From assembly GCA_001770285.1 (NCBI GenBank), contig MEQQ01000084.1, forward strand, positions 1-53,914: a stretch of 53,914 nt of DNA. The letters run 5' to 3'. The position numbers and the translations under genes are program-made. The first letter of the stretch is position 1. The number at the start of each line of letters is the position of its first letter. This DNA is from Betaproteobacteria bacterium RBG_16_66_20. Its GTDB lineage: Bacteria > Pseudomonadota > Gammaproteobacteria > Burkholderiales > SG8-39. The notes under the pieces are model-generated. The model was given only the letters and a program-made list of their open reading frames with translations. It searched no databases and was not told the origin of the DNA. This document shows positions 19,752-25,553 of this stretch, piece by piece.

Positions 19752-20455
19752 AGGGTCGGCAGGGAGCGGGCGAGGAGCAGCAGGCCGGCGAGCACCAATA
19801 CAGCGTACACCGCTTTGACGACCGCGATTGCCGGCACCGCGGCGTGCAGGCGGTTTCCGAGCCAGACCCCGCCGATGAGCGCCGGCAGCAGCACGAGCGC
19901 GGAAACCAACAGCCCCTCCTGCGCCAGCAGCCCTGCAGCACCGAACAGCAGCAACCGAACCATCGACGAGATCATGATCATCGCTGCATTGGTCGCGCGC
20001 AGAGCGTCCTTGTCGCGAACGCGGCCGGCGTTATAGATCGCGAACAGCACGCCGCCGGTGCCGAAGAGCGACGACAGCGCGCCCCCCGCGAGCCCGATCG
20101 GGGCGCACCAGACGCGGGACAGCGGGACCGCAACGCCGCGCCGCGTCAGGCCGTAGCCGGCGTAGAGCAACAGGAACACGCCCAGCACCACCAGCAGCTT
20201 TTGCTCGGCGACCCGGATCAGCAGCGTCAGGCCCGCGGCCATGCCCGCCAGCACGAACGGAATCAGCCAGGCGATCTCAGCGTAGTGGATCCGCTTGCGG
20301 AGGCGCGCACCGAAGATCACGAACGCGGTGAAATCCAGCAGCAGCAGCAGCGGGACCGCGAACTTGAGCGAAAAAAGGTGCGCCAGAACAGGCAGCGCGA
20401 TCACCGTGGAGCCGAAGCCGGTCAGCCCGAATACCGTGTAGGCGACGGCGACCAC
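19748..20455 (-). CDS. TauE/SafE (DUF81) family anion exporter-like membrane protein; start uncertain
   Basis: The C-terminal part of track ORF 19748..20791 reads ...TVFGLTGFGSTVIALPVL...GLAGGALSSLFGTGGVLF, the duplicated DUF81 motifs. The first ATG/GTG/TTG downstream of the aroG stop is the GTG at 20455. The upstream part of the ORF overlaps aroG. Confidence 0.7.
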   Translation of the reverse strand: MVAVAYTVFGLTGFGSTVIALPVLAHLFSLKFAVPLLLLLDFTAFVIFGARLRKRIHYAEIAWLIPFVLAGMAAGLTLLIRVAEQKLLVVLGVFLLLYAGYGLTRRGVAVPLSRVWCAPIGLAGGALSSLFGTGGVLFAIYNAGRVRDKDALRATNAAMIMISSMVRLLLFGAAGLLAQEGLLVSALVLLPALIGGVWLGNRLHAAVPAIAVVKAVYAVLVLAGLLLLARSLPTL

Positions 20456-20502
20456 CAGCGCCGCCAGAATCAGGACCTCCGGCGCGTACGGCAGGGAAAA
20501 GC

Positions 20503-21615
20503 TCAGTGCTTGCCTTTCTTTCGGCGCGCTTTGACCGCGGCGGCGAGCGTGTCGAGCAGCTCGACCGAGTCGTTCCAGCCAATGCAGGGGTCGGTGATGC
20601 TCTGGCCGAAGGTCAGCGGCTTGCCCGCAACGAGATCCTGCTTGCCCTCCACCAGGTGCGATTCCACCATCGCGCCGACGATGCAGCGCGAGCCGCCGGC
20701 GATCTGGCCGCCGACGTCGCGCGCCACATCCATCTGGCGCTTGTACTGCTTGGCGCAATTGGCGTGCGAGAAGTCGATCATCAGGCGGCAATCGAGCTTC
20801 GCTTTCGCCAGCTCACCGCAGGCCGCCCTGACGCTGGCCGCATCGTAATTCGGAGTCCTGCCGCCGCGCAGGATGATGTGGCAGTCCTCGTTGCCGCGCG
20901 TTTCGACGATCGAGACCTGGCCGCTCTTGTGCACCGAGAGGAAGTGGTGCTTCTGGCGCGCGGCGAGGATCGCGTCCACGGCGATGCGCACGTTGCCGTC
21001 GGTGCCGTTCTTGAACCCGACCGGCGCCGACAGGCCCGAAGACAGCTCGCGGTGCACCTGCGACTCGGTAGTGCGTGCGCCGATCGCCCCCCAGGACACC
21101 AGGTCGCCGATGTACTGCGGCGAGATCACGTCGAGAAACTCGCAGCCGGCAGGCACGCCGGCCTTGTTGATGCGCAGCAGCAGATCGCGCGCGATGCGCA
21201 GGCCTTCATTGATGCGGAAGCTGCCGTTCAGATAGGGATCGTTGATCAGGCCCTTCCAGCCCACCGTGGTGCGCGGTTTCTCGAAATACACGCGCATCAC
21301 CACTTCGAGTTCGCTTTCATGTTTTTTTCGTTCCAGCGACAGCTTTTCCGCATACGCGACCGCGGCAGCCGGGTCGTGGATCGAGCAGGGTCCGATGATC
21401 ACCAGCAGCCGGTCTGACTTGCCGTGCACGATCTCGCGCAGGCGGCGGCGCGTGTGCGCGATCAACTTCTCCACCGGCGTGCCCTGAATCGGGAAAAAAC
21501 GGATCAGGTGCTCCGGCGGCGGCAGCGGGACGATGTTCTCGATGCGCTCGTCGTCGGTGAGCGAGGTCTTGTCGGCGGGTACGGGGCCAAGGAAGGAGTC
21601 GGTGGGCGTGGTCAT
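20503..21615 (-). CDS. aroG: 3-deoxy-7-phosphoheptulonate (DAHP) synthase, class I
   Basis: The 370-aa product has LLVIIGPCSIHD, KPRTTVGWKGLINDP, GCEFLD and IGARTTESQVHRE, the class I alpha DAHP synthase signatures. The isozyme specificity is not determinable from sequence alone. Confidence 0.92.
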   Translation of the reverse strand: MTTPTDSFLGPVPADKTSLTDDERIENIVPLPPPEHLIRFFPIQGTPVEKLIAHTRRRLREIVHGKSDRLLVIIGPCSIHDPAAAVAYAEKLSLERKKHESELEVVMRVYFEKPRTTVGWKGLINDPYLNGSFRINEGLRIARDLLLRINKAGVPAGCEFLDVISPQYIGDLVSWGAIGARTTESQVHRELSSGLSAPVGFKNGTDGNVRIAVDAILAARQKHHFLSVHKSGQVSIVETRGNEDCHIILRGGRTPNYDAASVRAACGELAKAKLDCRLMIDFSHANCAKQYKRQMDVARDVGGQIAGGSRCIVGAMVESHLVEGKQDLVAGKPLTFGQSITDPCIGWNDSVELLDTLAAAVKARRKKGKH

Positions 21616-21631
21616 GATGTGGCCTCAGGTC

Positions 21632-21668
21632 AAAAAAAAACCGCCAGGCATTTCTGCTCTGGCGGTTT
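21632..21668 (-). terminator. Rho-independent terminator/attenuator in the DAHP synthase 5' leader
   Basis: The minus-strand RNA reads AAACCGCCAG-AGCAGAAAUGC-CUGGCGGUUUUUUUUU, an 8-10 bp stem with an 11-nt loop and a U9 tract. It ends 16 nt before the aroG ATG, just upstream of its GAGG Shine-Dalgarno. Confidence 0.7.
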
Positions 21669-21690
21669 GTCGGTTGCGCTGGTTGCGCGG

Positions 21691-21756
21691 CTAGCCGTTC
21701 CCCTCCGCCAGAGGGCGCGGAAAGTAGAAAAAATAGCCGAAGAACCGGCGGCTCAT
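21691..21756 (-). CDS. Phe/Tyr-rich leader peptide (21 aa) of the DAHP synthase attenuator
   Basis: My own translation: ATG AGC CGC CGG TTC TTC GGC TAT TTT TTC TAC TTT CCG CGC CCT CTG GCG GAG GGG AAC GGC TAG = MSRRFFGYFFYFPRPLAEGNG*. It is not in the ORF track because it is too short. The coding region contains CUCUGGCGG, which is complementary to the 5' arm of the downstream terminator. Confidence 0.65.
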   Translation of the reverse strand: MSRRFFGYFFYFPRPLAEGNG

Positions 21757-21942
21757 GCCGCCATTCAATCACGAACCCCCGGGGCAGGGCAAATTGCCCT
21801 CAATTTGGCGCTCATGGTCCGTCGAATCTGCACCATTGGCACTCGGGCAGGCGCACTGCCAAGTCCCAAATTTGCTAGAGGCAGAGGGTCATGCTACGGT
21901 TTTCCCACAGTCGGCCGATTAGAAGAACATAAGGAGGTCGAA

Positions 21943-22932
21943 ATGGCGGCACGTGCATCGCTTCCTGTCCCCTCGGCATCGATCCCGGTCGCGGGGTTCA
22001 AAGATGTCTACGAAGTCACGGCGGTCGAAAAAGCCCTGCAGGAACTTCCGCAATCCGCCAGCGAGGCGTTGCGTTCGCTCTACGAAAAAATGCTGCGCGT
22101 CGGCGGCCAGCGCTTTGCGGTCAAGCCCTCCGGGCTGCCGCAGATGCAGGCGCTGTTCGAGGAGCTGCCCAATTTTGGCGAGGTCCTGGAGTACATCCGG
22201 CGGCAACTCGCGCTGTGCGTGGACTCGAACGATGACATCGAAATCCCGCCGATCCTGCTGCTGGGCGACCCCGGCATCGGCAAGACGCACTTCGCGCGCC
22301 GCGTCTCGCAGCTGCTCGGCACGGGCTACGGCTTCGTGCCGATGAGTTCGCTCACCGCCGGCTGGGTCCTGTCGGGCGCTTCGTCGCAATGGAAGAACGC
22401 CAAGCCCGGCAAGGTGTTCGAGACCTTCCTCAACGGCGAGTACGCCAATCCGGTGCTGGTGGTGGATGAGCTCGACAAGGCGAGCGCGGACGGCCAGTAC
22501 GATCCGCTGGGCGCGCTCTACGAGCTGCTCGAGACGCAGACCGCGATGCATTTCGTCGACGAGTTCGCGGAAATTCCGATCAATGCCTCGGGCGCGGTGT
22601 GGTTTGCGACCGCGAATGATGCCGCGCGCATCCCGGAGCCGCTGCTCAACCGGATGAACGTCTACGAAATCGAACCGCCCGACGCCGCGGGCTCGGCGCG
22701 CATCGCGCGATCGCTGTACCGGGAAATCCGCGAATCGCACGACTGGGGCAAGCACTTTCCGGAGGCCCCTTCGGGCAGTGTGGTGGAAAAGCTCGCCTTG
22801 CTCACGCCACGCGAGATGCGGCGCGCGGTACAGGCCGCATTCGGCAACGCCAAGGTGGCCGGACGCGAAGCGCTGCAGCCCGAGGACGTGGATGTCCAGC
22901 GGGGCGGCCGGAAATCCAGAATCGGCTTCTAG
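21943..22932 (+). CDS. Lon-like AAA+ ATPase module without a protease domain
   Basis: The start is moved to the ATG at 21943, preceded by AAGGAGG with a 5-nt spacer. Walker A is [12 protein letters not shown] and Walker B is VLVVDELDK. ...[24 protein letters not shown] parallels the Lon ATPase domain (IATAN...PLLDRMEVI). The product is 329 aa, with no Lon N-domain and no Ser-Lys protease domain. Confidence 0.8.
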
Positions 22933-25553
22933 AGGCGCTGCGCGACCCAGGCCTGCACTGAATCGAGCGCGGCCGGCAGATTTGCCGGTTCCGTGCCGCC
23001 CGCCTGCGCCATGTCGGGGCGCCCGCCGCCCTTGCCGCCGATCTGCTGCGCGACGTAATTCACCAGCTCGCCCGCCTTGACCCTGCCGGTAAGGTCCGCC
23101 GTGACGCCCGCGACCAGGGTCACCTTGCCGTCGCTCACGGTGCCGAGCACGATCGCCGCGCTCTTCAGCTTGTCCTTCAGCTTGTCCATGGTCTCGCGCA
23201 ACGTCTTCGCGTCCGCGCCTTCGAGCGCGACCGCGAGCACCTTGGCGCCTTTCACGTCGACGGCCTGTTCCGCCAGGTCCTCGCCCTGGCTGGAGGCGAT
23301 TTTCGACTTCAGCCTCGAAAGTTCCCGCTCCAGAGACTTGTTCATTTCCTGCAGCGATGAAAACTTCTTCTTCAGGTTCGCGACATCGACGCCCTGGAGT
23401 CCGGCATCAAAGGCGAGTTCGGAAACGTCCTCCTCCAGCCGCTGAACCCAGGCCAGTGCGCCCTCGCCGGTCACCGCCTCGACGCGCCGCACGCCGGCCG
23501 CGACGCCGGACTCGGAGACGATCTTGAAGAAACCGACGTCGCCGGTCCGCCGCACGTGCGTACCGCCGCAAAGTTCCGTGGAGAAATCGCCCATGCTCAG
23601 AACTCTGACCTCGTCGCCATACTTGTCGCCGAAGAATGCAAGCGCGCCCGCCTTGATGGCGTCGTCGTATTTCATGATGCGCGCGCGCACTTCCTCGTTG
23701 CGCTGGATTTCGTCGTTAACCAGCGCCTCGATACGGCGGAGCTCGTCCGCGGCCAGCGGTTTGTTGTGGGAGAAATCGAAGCGCGTCCGATGCTCGTCGA
23801 CGAGCGAGCCCTTCTGCTGCACGTGAGGGCCCAGCACCTTGCGCAGCGCCGCATGCATCAGGTGCGTGGCGGAGTGGTTCCACATCGCGCGTCGGCGCAT
23901 TGCCGTGTCCACCTGTGCGCCGACTTCTTCGCCGACTTTCAGCCGCCCGGTCGATTGCCTGCCATGATGGCCGAAGACCTCGGCCTGGATTTTTTGGGTG
24001 TCCTCGACGGTGAACGTGCCGGCGGGGCCGATCATCTCGCCGCGGTCGCCGACCTGGCCGCCGGATTCCGCGTAAAACGGTGTCCTGTCGAGCACCACGA
24101 CGCCGCTTTCCCCCGCATTCAGTTCCGAGGTTTGCGCGCCTTCGCGATAGATCGCGACCACGCGACCCCGCTCCGACAACGTTTCATAGCCACGGAACTC
24201 GGTCTTGGCGCCCGAGTAGTGGAGCCCGGCGCTCGAGGTGAACCGGCTCGCGGCGCGCGCGCGCTCGCGCTGCTGCGCCATTGCGGCCTCGAAGCCGGCC
24301 AGATCCAGGCTCACGCCGCGCTCTCGGCAGATGTCGGCGGTGAGATCGACCGGGAAACCGAACGTGTCATAGAGCTTGAATACCGTCTCGCCGTCGAGCA
24401 GCTTCTCGCCCGAGGCAAGCGCCCCCTCGAGCACGCCCATGCCGTGATCCAGGGTCTCGGCAAAGCGCTCCTCTTCCTGCATCAGGACCCCGGCAATCCT
24501 GTCCGCGGCCGCCCTTAGCTCCGGATACGCGTCGCCCATGGCCTGGTCCAGATCGGCGACCAGGCGGTGGAAGAAAGGCTGCTTCTGGCCGAGCTTGTAG
24601 CCATGGCGGATGGCACGGCGCACGACGCGGCGCAGCACGTAGCCGCGGCCTTCGTTGCCCGGAATCACTCCGTCGACAATCAGAAAGCTGCACGCCCGGA
24701 TGTGGTCGGCGATCACGTTGAGCGAAGGATTCTTCGATACCTTCTGGCGCGTTTCGCGCGCAGCCGCCCTGATCAGGTACTGGAACAGATCGATCTCGTA
24801 GTTGGAGTGCTCGTGCTGCAGCACCGCGGCGATGCGCTCGAGGCCCATGCCCGTGTCCACGCAGGGCTTGGGCAAAGGCGTCATCACGCCCTTGTCATCC
24901 CGGTTGTATTGCATGAAGACGAGGTTCCAGATCTCGATGTAGCGGTCGCCGTCCGCGTCCGGCGATCCGGGCGGCCCGCCGGCTATCCCCGCTCCATGGT
25001 CGTAAAAAATCTCGCTGCAGGGGCCACAGGGTCCGGTGTCGGCCATCTGCCAGAAGTTGTCCGACTGGAATTTCGCGCCGCCGGGCTTGTCGCCGACGCG
25101 GATGCAGCGCTCCTTGGGCACGCCGATGGTCTTGGTCCACAGGTCGTAGGCCTCGTCGTCGGTCTCGTACACCGTGGTCCAGAGCCGCTCAGGCGGCAGC
25201 TTGTAGACCTTGGTGAGCAGTTCCCAGGCGAACCGGATCGCGTCCTTCTTGAAGTAGTCGCCGAAGCTGAAATTGCCCAGCATTTCGAAGAAGGTATGGT
25301 GGCGCGCGGTGTAGCCGACGTTCTCCAGGTCGTTGTGCTTGCCGCCCGCGCGCACGCAACGCTGCGAGGTCGTGGCGCGCACGTAGGCGCGCTTCTCCTT
25401 GCCGAGAAAAGTGTCCTTGAACTGCACCATCCCCGAATTGACGAACAGCAGCGTCGGGTCGTTCGCCGGCACCAGCGAACTGGAGGCGACGATGGTGTGG
25501 CCCTTGGACCTGAAATACTCGAGGAAGCTGGAGCGGATCTCTGCGGATTTCAT
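22929..25553 (-). CDS. alaS: Alanine--tRNA ligase
   Basis: The 874-aa product reads [29 protein letters not shown]...FTNSGM-type motifs, with [10 protein letters not shown] (editing-domain HxxxH) and a C-terminal [13 protein letters not shown]. Confidence 0.97.

Follow-up and report, generated by a model that had tools for sequence, protein, structure and literature searches.

A 53,914-nucleotide stretch of contig MEQQ01000084.1 from Betaproteobacteria bacterium RBG_16_66_20 (assembly GCA_001770285.1; the whole stretch is called the window below) encodes an AroG-like 3-deoxy-7-phosphoheptulonate (DAHP) synthase on its minus strand. Expression of this gene is very probably controlled by a ribosome-mediated transcription attenuator, in which translation of a short leader peptide decides between a terminator and an antiterminator. 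A first-pass annotation of the sequence had proposed this mechanism, and it is supported by the conservation of the arrangement in 64 of 81 sequences, by covariation and by a simulation of ribosome stalling. The parts of the element are as follows.

21756->21691, minus strand: leader peptide open reading frame (ORF), MSRRFFGYFFYFPRPLAEGNG*, 21 codons plus stop
21721..21744, minus strand: regulatory codon run FFGYFFYF (UUC UUC GGC UAU UUU UUC UAC UUU), read from the sequence
21717..21724, minus strand: segment 1, CUUUCCGC, predicted 5' arm of the anti-antiterminator (1:2), overlapping the last Phe codon
21701..21713, minus strand: segment 2, CUCUGGCGGAGGG, of which 21713-21705 pairs with segment 3 (antiterminator) and 21708-21701 with segment 1
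21657..21668, minus strand: segment 3, AAACCGCCAGAG, holding the 5' arm of the terminator (21668-21659) and the 3' arm of the antiterminator (21665-21657)
21638..21647, minus strand: segment 4, CUGGCGGUUU, 3' arm of the terminator
21632..21640, minus strand: U9 tract of the intrinsic terminator, read from the sequence
21623..21626, minus strand: Shine-Dalgarno sequence GAGG of the DAHP synthase gene; the terminator lies upstream and does not overlap it
20503..21615, minus strand: AroG-like class I-alpha DAHP synthase, the regulated gene, 370 amino acids

Codons 5-12 of the leader ORF read FFGYFFYF and thus comprise five Phe and two Tyr codons. The stop codon is followed, after 25 nt, by CCGCCAG (21665-21659), whose partner CUGGCGG lies at 21647-21641, and the U9 tract ends 16 nt before the DAHP synthase ATG (21615). 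Inside the leader ORF, CUCUGGCGG (21713-21705) is perfectly complementary to CCGCCAGAG (21665-21657) over 9 bp. On re-reading, each coordinate of the first-pass annotation was right (leader ORF, arms, U9 tract, spacings and 9-nt complement). The strong intrinsic terminator that it described was also borne out, with a stem longer than it had given: the full terminator (21668-21632) folds as AAACCGCCAG-A-GCA-GAAA-UGC-CUGGCGGUUU, with a free energy of -20.7 kcal/mol. A comparison of the alternative structures, which the same annotation had suggested, gave -11.6 kcal/mol for the 1:2 helix, -23.6 kcal/mol for 2:3 (-17.0 for the 9-bp duplex) and the above -20.7 kcal/mol for 3:4, energies of the same order as those of the trp attenuator. 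The antiterminator and the terminator share CCGCCAG, hence the two helices are mutually exclusive.

The gene downstream is a class-I DAHP synthase (TIGR00034, 521 bits; PF00793). Its nearest solved structure is the Phe-sensitive AroG of E. coli (463 bits, compared with 348 bits for the Tyr-sensitive AroF), a ranking by similarity score among solved structures that does not establish allosteric specificity. The upstream neighbour, an AAA+ ATPase gene, starts at 21943 on the plus strand and is divergent from the leader; the terminator is therefore not the 3' end of another gene.

In the mechanism that we propose, an extended -10 promoter would start transcription at the leader AUG or no more than about 2 nt away from it, and a ribosome would translate the 21-codon leader while RNA polymerase moves on. 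With Phe-tRNA and Tyr-tRNA well charged, the ribosome would pass segment 2 and reach the stop codon, which in the window lies 11 nt beyond that segment. Segment 2 would then be occluded, or would re-pair with segment 1 behind the ribosome, while segments 3 and 4 would form the terminator, so that transcription would end 16 nt before the gene and leave a leader RNA of a predicted ~125 nt as the default product. If charged Phe-tRNA or Tyr-tRNA were scarce, the ribosome would stall within FFGYFFYF and cover segment 1, leaving segment 2 free to pair with the emerging segment 3; the terminator would be blocked and the polymerase would enter the DAHP synthase gene. The window leader would respond to Phe and Tyr only. 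Most relatives have one extra Trp codon, with which the element would integrate all three aromatic amino acids.

Related loci were collected by a DAHP synthase protein scan with one genome per species of the Genome Taxonomy Database (GTDB), which gave 80 loci of 60-83% identity, almost all from Burkholderiales. Leader, terminator and antiterminator occur together upstream of the orthologue in 63 of these 80 species genomes, and the window together with these 63 loci forms the 64-locus set used below (64/81 sequences). The search of orthologous upstream regions that the first-pass annotation had suggested thus found F/Y-rich mini-ORFs kept before DAHP synthase in the same 63 genomes. The leaders of the carriers have 18-30 codons and an ATG start (GTG once), with 5-8 aromatic residues within 9 codons. 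Their terminators follow the pattern AAACCGCC(A/G)G...C(U/C)GGCGGU(5-10) and lie 16-150 nt before the gene, and a GGCGG-containing segment falls at leader codons 15-20 in nearly all of them. Carriers belong to Comamonadaceae, to relatives of Rubrivivax, Roseateles and Rhizobacter, to Burkholderia, Paraburkholderia and Caballeronia, and to relatives of Janthinobacterium and Massilia; the genera include Variovorax, Acidovorax, Comamonas, Polaromonas, Hydrogenophaga, Ramlibacter, Limnohabitans, Rubrivivax, Roseateles, Rhizobacter, Aquabacterium, Burkholderia, Paraburkholderia, Caballeronia, Janthinobacterium, Massilia and Rugamonas. The sampled orthologues from Polynucleobacter, Cupriavidus and Rhodocyclales have neither the aromatic ORF nor the terminator and serve as an internal negative control. 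Such an ORF is missing from 15 orthologous loci that lack the terminator.

This distribution bears on the simplest alternative, in which a T-rich stretch merely happens to stay open beside an ordinary terminator. Phe codons do arise in several frames of T-rich sequence. Yet in a scan for mini-ORFs with ATG starts, 8-45 codons and at least five F/Y/W within 9 codons, the leader was the only one across both strands of the 53.9-kb window (108 kb), and shuffling of the intergenic region yielded such a mini-ORF in 8 of 3000 cases. The 185-nt region also folds better than 200 of 200 shuffled versions (z = -3.97). Above all, the leader is kept together with the terminator in the 64 loci and is missing from the 15 orthologous loci without one. 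Coincidence is therefore extremely improbable, and on the comparative sequence evidence we regard it as refuted by conservation.

A second, independent survey of metagenomes used only the segment 2/3/4 pattern as query and returned 120 matches. Of these, 39 carry an aromatic leader, and 38 of the 39 sit 12-153 nt before a class-I DAHP synthase; among the ~77 pattern matches that lack an aromatic leader, no class-I DAHP synthase was found. The strict linkage to the gene (38/39) also speaks to the idea that the terminated transcript or the peptide acts mainly in trans, as a small RNA or small protein like rnTrpL/peTrpL of Sinorhizobium meliloti, with cis control secondary. A leaderless attenuator RNA that also functions in trans has been described before, and the default state would give a stable terminated RNA with a strong hairpin. 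The conserved features are, by contrast, exactly those that a cis switch needs, and no other conserved single-stranded seed was noticed. We consider a mainly trans-acting role quite improbable; such a role would be an add-on to cis attenuation rather than an alternative to it.

Some loci show individual variations. The sole leader-bearing metagenome match of the 39 that is not linked to DAHP synthase, L136 (contig Ga0193752_1117849, minus strand, ~316-396 of the reoriented sequence, from an AT-rich metagenome), has the leader MQALRNFFGYWFSPRKLAVVPVRIKNR, followed by UUGGCGGUU ... ACACCGCC..GGCGGUUUUUU, and precedes a 110-amino-acid ORF of unknown function; the ORF after that one is, judged by its motif, a putative tryptophanyl-tRNA synthetase. 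A further locus beyond the 64, L079 (Undibacterium sp. TS12, 1893-2033), carries the leader MKQVVFFFFFYFSYSRPKAVGRR with its terminator at a distance of 458 nt upstream of the gene, far more than the usual 16-150 nt; the gap is AT-rich and nothing obvious is encoded there. At L055-L059, from Burkholderia and Paraburkholderia, the U tract and the start of the DAHP synthase gene are separated by 125-145 nt, compared with 16 nt in the window; a second promoter or some other regulatory element could fit into this gap.

The first-pass annotation had described a mutually exclusive antiterminator with its 5' arm in the leader ORF; this perfect 9-bp complement is conserved and covaries. The competing terminator helix (3:4) is 96% paired over the 64 sequences, and its variable pair is G-C in 40, A-U in 23 and G-U in one. 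RNAalifold, run on the 64-sequence alignment, finds the terminator only and no further conserved structured domain; the alternative helices were therefore tested explicitly. The antiterminator (2:3) is 80% paired, compared with 19-56% for partners shifted by 1-3 columns, and this figure is a lowered one, as MAFFT displaced GGCGG by one column in 7-10 sequences; anchor-based registration was used for base triplets. Each triplet is made up of the nucleotides that flank the three cores, on the 5' side in segments 2 and 4 and on the 3' side in segment 3. Written in the order 2/3/4, the triplets read C/G/C in 30 of the 64 loci, U/A/U in 16 and U/G/C in 4, and 50/64 loci are compatible with both helices at the variable position. 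Cognate 2:3 helices reach 2.36 nt past the core, whereas permuted partners reach 1.74+-0.10 (maximum 2.08 in 2000 permutations).

The same signal appears within the clade of the window (12 sequences including metagenome relatives), where the 9-bp antiterminator is 89.7% paired, versus 23-53% in slid registers. The pair three positions outside the core is G-C in four of these sequences, U-A in two, A-U in one and C-G in one. The segment 3 base of this outer pair is bulged in the terminator, so it is constrained by the antiterminator alone. In addition, there is an inner helix, in which the purine block conserved downstream of segment 2 (GAnGAGAGG) is paired to a CUCC-type block just upstream of segment 3; its cognate energy is -7.18 kcal/mol, compared with -6.10+-0.23 kcal/mol for permuted partners (0/300 permutations as low). 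This pairing explains why the purine block is kept even in leaders that stop inside it (...PGG*). Retention of GGCGGAnGAGAGG in leaders whose stop falls within it points to a constraint at the RNA level.

The position of segment 2 relative to the codon run fits a sensor based on a ribosome. A distance of 8-18 nt separates the last codon of the aromatic run from the start of segment 2, which puts the segment just past the reach of a ribosome stalled at that run. For the stall simulation, transcripts were truncated before segment 4, the ribosome footprint was masked and the remainder was folded. In the window, the free truncated RNA forms 1:2 and no 2:3, a ribosome at an aromatic codon gives the full 2:3 antiterminator at 7/7 stall positions, and with a ribosome at the stop codon 2:3 does not form. 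Across the set, the stalled state gives 2:3 in 63/64 loci.

Leader length varies in this respect. Six loci of the Acidovorax/Comamonas/Simplicispira/Curvibacter group (L015, L024, L029, L035, L040 and L048) have leaders of just 18 codons, with a UGA stop that lies one nt past the GGCGG core and so falls within the conserved GGCGGAUGAGAGG block; the stop of other clades comes 9-31 nt further along. In these six loci, a terminating ribosome would cover segment 2 directly.

Codon usage points in the same direction. UUU makes up 63% of Phe codons in the leaders and 17% in the adjacent DAHP synthase genes, and UAU makes up 46% and 20% of Tyr codons, respectively; the leaders are therefore enriched in the rare codons UUU and UAU. 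Tyr is present in all 64 leaders, at least three Phe in 63 and Trp in 52, the window leader being one without Trp. A terminator scan flagged a hairpin, GCCGGUUCUUCGGC then UAUUUUUUCU, at 21736-21749 on the minus strand, within leader codons 3-10. Comparable pairing is possible in the related locus L001, and none was noticed in other clades; the hairpin might be a polymerase pause site, or a mere by-product of U-rich codons.

Composition also helps to separate stalling at uncharged tRNA from a TnaC-like arrest, in which free aromatic amino acids would cause the nascent peptide itself to halt the ribosome. The aromatic, Pro-containing FYFPRP of the window could conceivably contact the exit tunnel. 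However, there is no conservation in the residues that follow the aromatic run (S in 34 of the 64 leaders, H in 9, P in 7 and L in 5). The F-P ending to which the first-pass annotation had drawn attention as resembling pheL is consequently not a feature of the family. Conservation towards the C terminus is at the nucleotide level and continues past early stop codons, and F, Y and W swap freely between lineages, which fits codon counting and not an arrest motif. We judge peptide arrest highly unlikely.

The switch could also be real and be set by something other than a ribosome, such as a riboswitch ligand, a T-box-like tRNA contact or an RNA-binding protein, with the ORF incidental. An ORF without a Shine-Dalgarno sequence and a purine block conserved at the RNA level would suit such a scheme. 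It would leave unexplained an in-frame F/Y/W run whose ATG stands at a fixed distance from a -10-like box and which is kept across families despite differing nucleotides, and only a ribosome sensor accounts for the rare-codon enrichment and for the 8-18 nt between run and segment 2. Moreover, no Rfam family matched in the window or in 20 related loci, and no conserved structured domain was seen besides the competing helices. Control by a ligand, tRNA or protein in place of the ribosome is thus very unlikely.

How the leader would be transcribed and translated is suggested by the sequence immediately upstream, where two putative promoter elements of the window lie.

21787..21792, minus strand: -35-like hexamer TTGCCC, 18 nt upstream of the -10-like hexamer
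21763..21771, minus strand: extended -10-like box TGaTTGAAT, ending 6 nt before the A of the leader ATG

TTGCCC, the 18-nt spacer and TGaTTGAAT together put the expected transcription start at the A of the leader AUG. In the window clade, the -35 hexamers at the same 18-nt spacing, read by eye, are TTGCCC, TTGCCT, TTGCCA, TTGGAC and TAGACA. Across the 64 loci, an extended -10-like box, defined as TGnT....T with at least 4/6 matches to TATAAT, is found in 44 and ends 6-9 nt before the start codon in 43 of these. It reads TGnTACATT in most loci, TACATT being the commonest hexamer, and TGnTTGAAT in the window clade; Burkholderia-type and Janthinobacterium-type loci have TATAAA or TATAGT ~25-40 nt upstream instead (by eye). 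The first-pass annotation had seen a weak Shine-Dalgarno sequence, GGCGGC, before the leader, and had suggested translational coupling to a mini-ORF (ATG-GCG-GCA-TGA) that overlaps the leader ATG. Neither idea survives the comparison: the family has a conserved -10 box in place of a Shine-Dalgarno sequence, and the mini-ORF is present only in the window and L001. On the strength of the extended -10 box and the missing Shine-Dalgarno sequence, we think it fairly likely that the leader mRNA is leaderless and starts at the AUG. If so, most of the overlapping mini-ORF would not be transcribed.

A perfect 6-3-6 palindrome, AGGGCAATTTGCCCT, at 21786-21800 on the minus strand overlaps the putative -35 hexamer and is the first hairpin of the fold; a partial counterpart, AGGCGCATTTGCCT, was read by eye in L001. 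A transcription factor might use the palindrome as its operator and act on the leader promoter or on the divergent one.

Several results weigh against attenuation by a translating ribosome, or against parts of it. A leader Shine-Dalgarno sequence (at least 4 nt of complementarity) was found in 0/64 loci, as against 51/58 DAHP synthase genes in the same test, so translation of the leader hinges on the proposed leaderless start. At that start, position 2 of the -10-like hexamer of the window, TTGAAT, is not the canonical A, and a strict promoter scan called no promoter at the leader, the -35-like hexamer included. The A/G switch in segment 3 occurred only ~3 times independently on the DAHP synthase tree; covariation at the main variable position therefore amounts to a few events, not 64. 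As for the 1:2 hairpin, some form of it is predicted in 64/64 loci. Yet the helix in the register of the window shows no covariation and does no better than slid registers, and hairpins of this type barely beat shuffled sequences (mean z -0.9). The 1:2 anti-antiterminator is plausible but unproven as a predicted structure.

Folding at equilibrium also raises difficulties. The free truncated transcript already prefers 2:3 in 31/64 loci, so termination by default has to come from kinetics or from occlusion by the ribosome in these loci; in some loci the stop codon lies 16-31 nt past segment 2, and occlusion at the stop would not apply to them. The full-length leader at equilibrium always keeps the terminator, even with a masked ribosome. 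That result is expected under kinetic control and is uninformative for a kinetic switch.

We found no counterpart of the element in the databases searched. Rfam covariance models (Phe_leader, Trp_leader, other leaders, T-box and riboswitches) gave no relevant match at E<=10 in 20000-23500, and at the gathering score no leader family matched in the whole window or in the 20 related loci. Weak Rfam matches with E of 1-10 (mir-607, BcKCsr7, hvt-mir-H16 and mir-602) were treated as noise. Five representative leaders had no NCBIfam match at E<=10, the window leader had no Pfam match at E<=0.01, and ten leader peptides were not found by exact look-up in a collection of ~15 billion proteins. Among annotated plasmid and chromid records, a protein search gave only distant or enteric aroG, and a DNA search with a Caballeronia leader gave nothing. 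A full-text literature search found no description of this attenuator in Betaproteobacteria, although it may be mentioned elsewhere. In mechanism, the element is a classical attenuator of the trp/pheA type that is not listed in the Rfam, NCBIfam and literature searched; what sets it apart is the mixed Phe/Tyr(/Trp) codon run, the control of the pathway's entry enzyme and, probably, the leaderless start.

With pheL-pheA, pheM-pheST and trpL-trpEDCBA of E. coli, the element has in common a short ORF in which regulatory codons form a run, a terminator before the structural gene, an antiterminator 5' arm in or just after the ORF, the dependence of the fold on ribosome position and a bias towards rare codons. 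It differs from these leaders in having no sequence or covariance-model similarity to them (no Rfam match at E<=10), and in regulating the entry enzyme of the common pathway, whereas the E. coli leaders regulate terminal-branch genes. Furthermore, it mixes codons for two (window) or three (most relatives) amino acids in one run, it has no Shine-Dalgarno sequence and probably a leaderless mRNA, and its 1:2 pause or anti-antiterminator hairpin lacks support from covariation.

The closest functional precedent is aroR-aroF of Corynebacterium glutamicum, where, as the review describes it, a leader with F-Y-F codons precedes an operon that holds a DAHP synthase gene, and ribosome stalling raises read-through in response to Phe and not Tyr (Neshat et al., 2014, cited in PMC11802643). 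The first-pass annotation had considered it noteworthy that the entry enzyme should be under leader-peptide control; such control is supported here, but in view of aroR it is not unprecedented. The likeness is functional and is drawn from the review's description, according to which aroR has three regulatory codons; here, 7/8 consecutive codons are aromatic, and Trp is added in relatives. C. glutamicum belongs to a different phylum, and, given the Burkholderiales-specific ACCGCC/GGCGG switch, an origin independent of aroR seems likely. Within Proteobacteria, putative attenuators before the DAHP synthase gene of Vibrio aroF-tyrA were taken from Merino's attenuator database in PMC1173090. They resemble the element in having a predicted terminator and antiterminator, but they are structure-only predictions in Gammaproteobacteria, for which the relevant passages of that paper describe no leader peptide. 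For the leaderless start, there are parallels in the leader peptide of S. meliloti trpL-trpE(G), where the transcript has its 5' end at the start codon and no Shine-Dalgarno sequence (PMC7298713), and in leaderless leader peptides of Deinococcus deserti, whose transcripts also begin at the start codon and have no Shine-Dalgarno sequence (PMC4007540). In both, the ends were mapped experimentally, whereas here the leaderless start is deduced from an extended -10 box 6-9 nt upstream and the missing Shine-Dalgarno sequence.

The element is solid and widely conserved, but mechanistically unsurprising. It is of interest because, in a large order of environmental and clinical importance for which we found no published account of this gene's regulation, it points to a leader peptide as the control over entry into aromatic amino-acid synthesis. 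It would represent a leader family that Rfam, NCBIfam and gene calls do not include and with which hundreds of genomes can be annotated. It would also be a natural case of multivalent attenuation, with Phe, Tyr and Trp counted in one leader for a common-pathway enzyme, and probably a further leaderless leader peptide in Proteobacteria. In the engineering of Paraburkholderia or Comamonas for aromatic compounds, the 125-nt element is an obvious target for deletion or mutation. A broader reading, which we offer tentatively and place slightly on the doubtful side of even, is that of an order-wide Burkholderiales attenuator class, absent from the databases searched, whose leaderless 5'-AUG leader counts all three aromatic amino acids (Phe/Tyr here, Phe/Tyr/Trp in 52/64). 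Transcription of the shikimate pathway in these bacteria could be gated mainly by such a class, in place of the enteric TyrR and TrpR repressors, and the terminated RNA or the peptide of the class might also act in trans like rnTrpL/peTrpL of S. meliloti.

Further upstream, the BcKCsr7 match (a Burkholderia small RNA) lies on the plus strand at 22602-22772, within the AAA+ ATPase coding region. With 19 bits against a gathering score of 59, and E = 1, it is most likely noise from GC-rich sequence. The AAA+ ATPase ORF ends at 22932 and converges with a minus-strand ORF of 874 amino acids (22929-25553), read from its translation alone as alanyl-tRNA synthetase; the stop codons of the two ORFs overlap by 4 nt (22929-22932).

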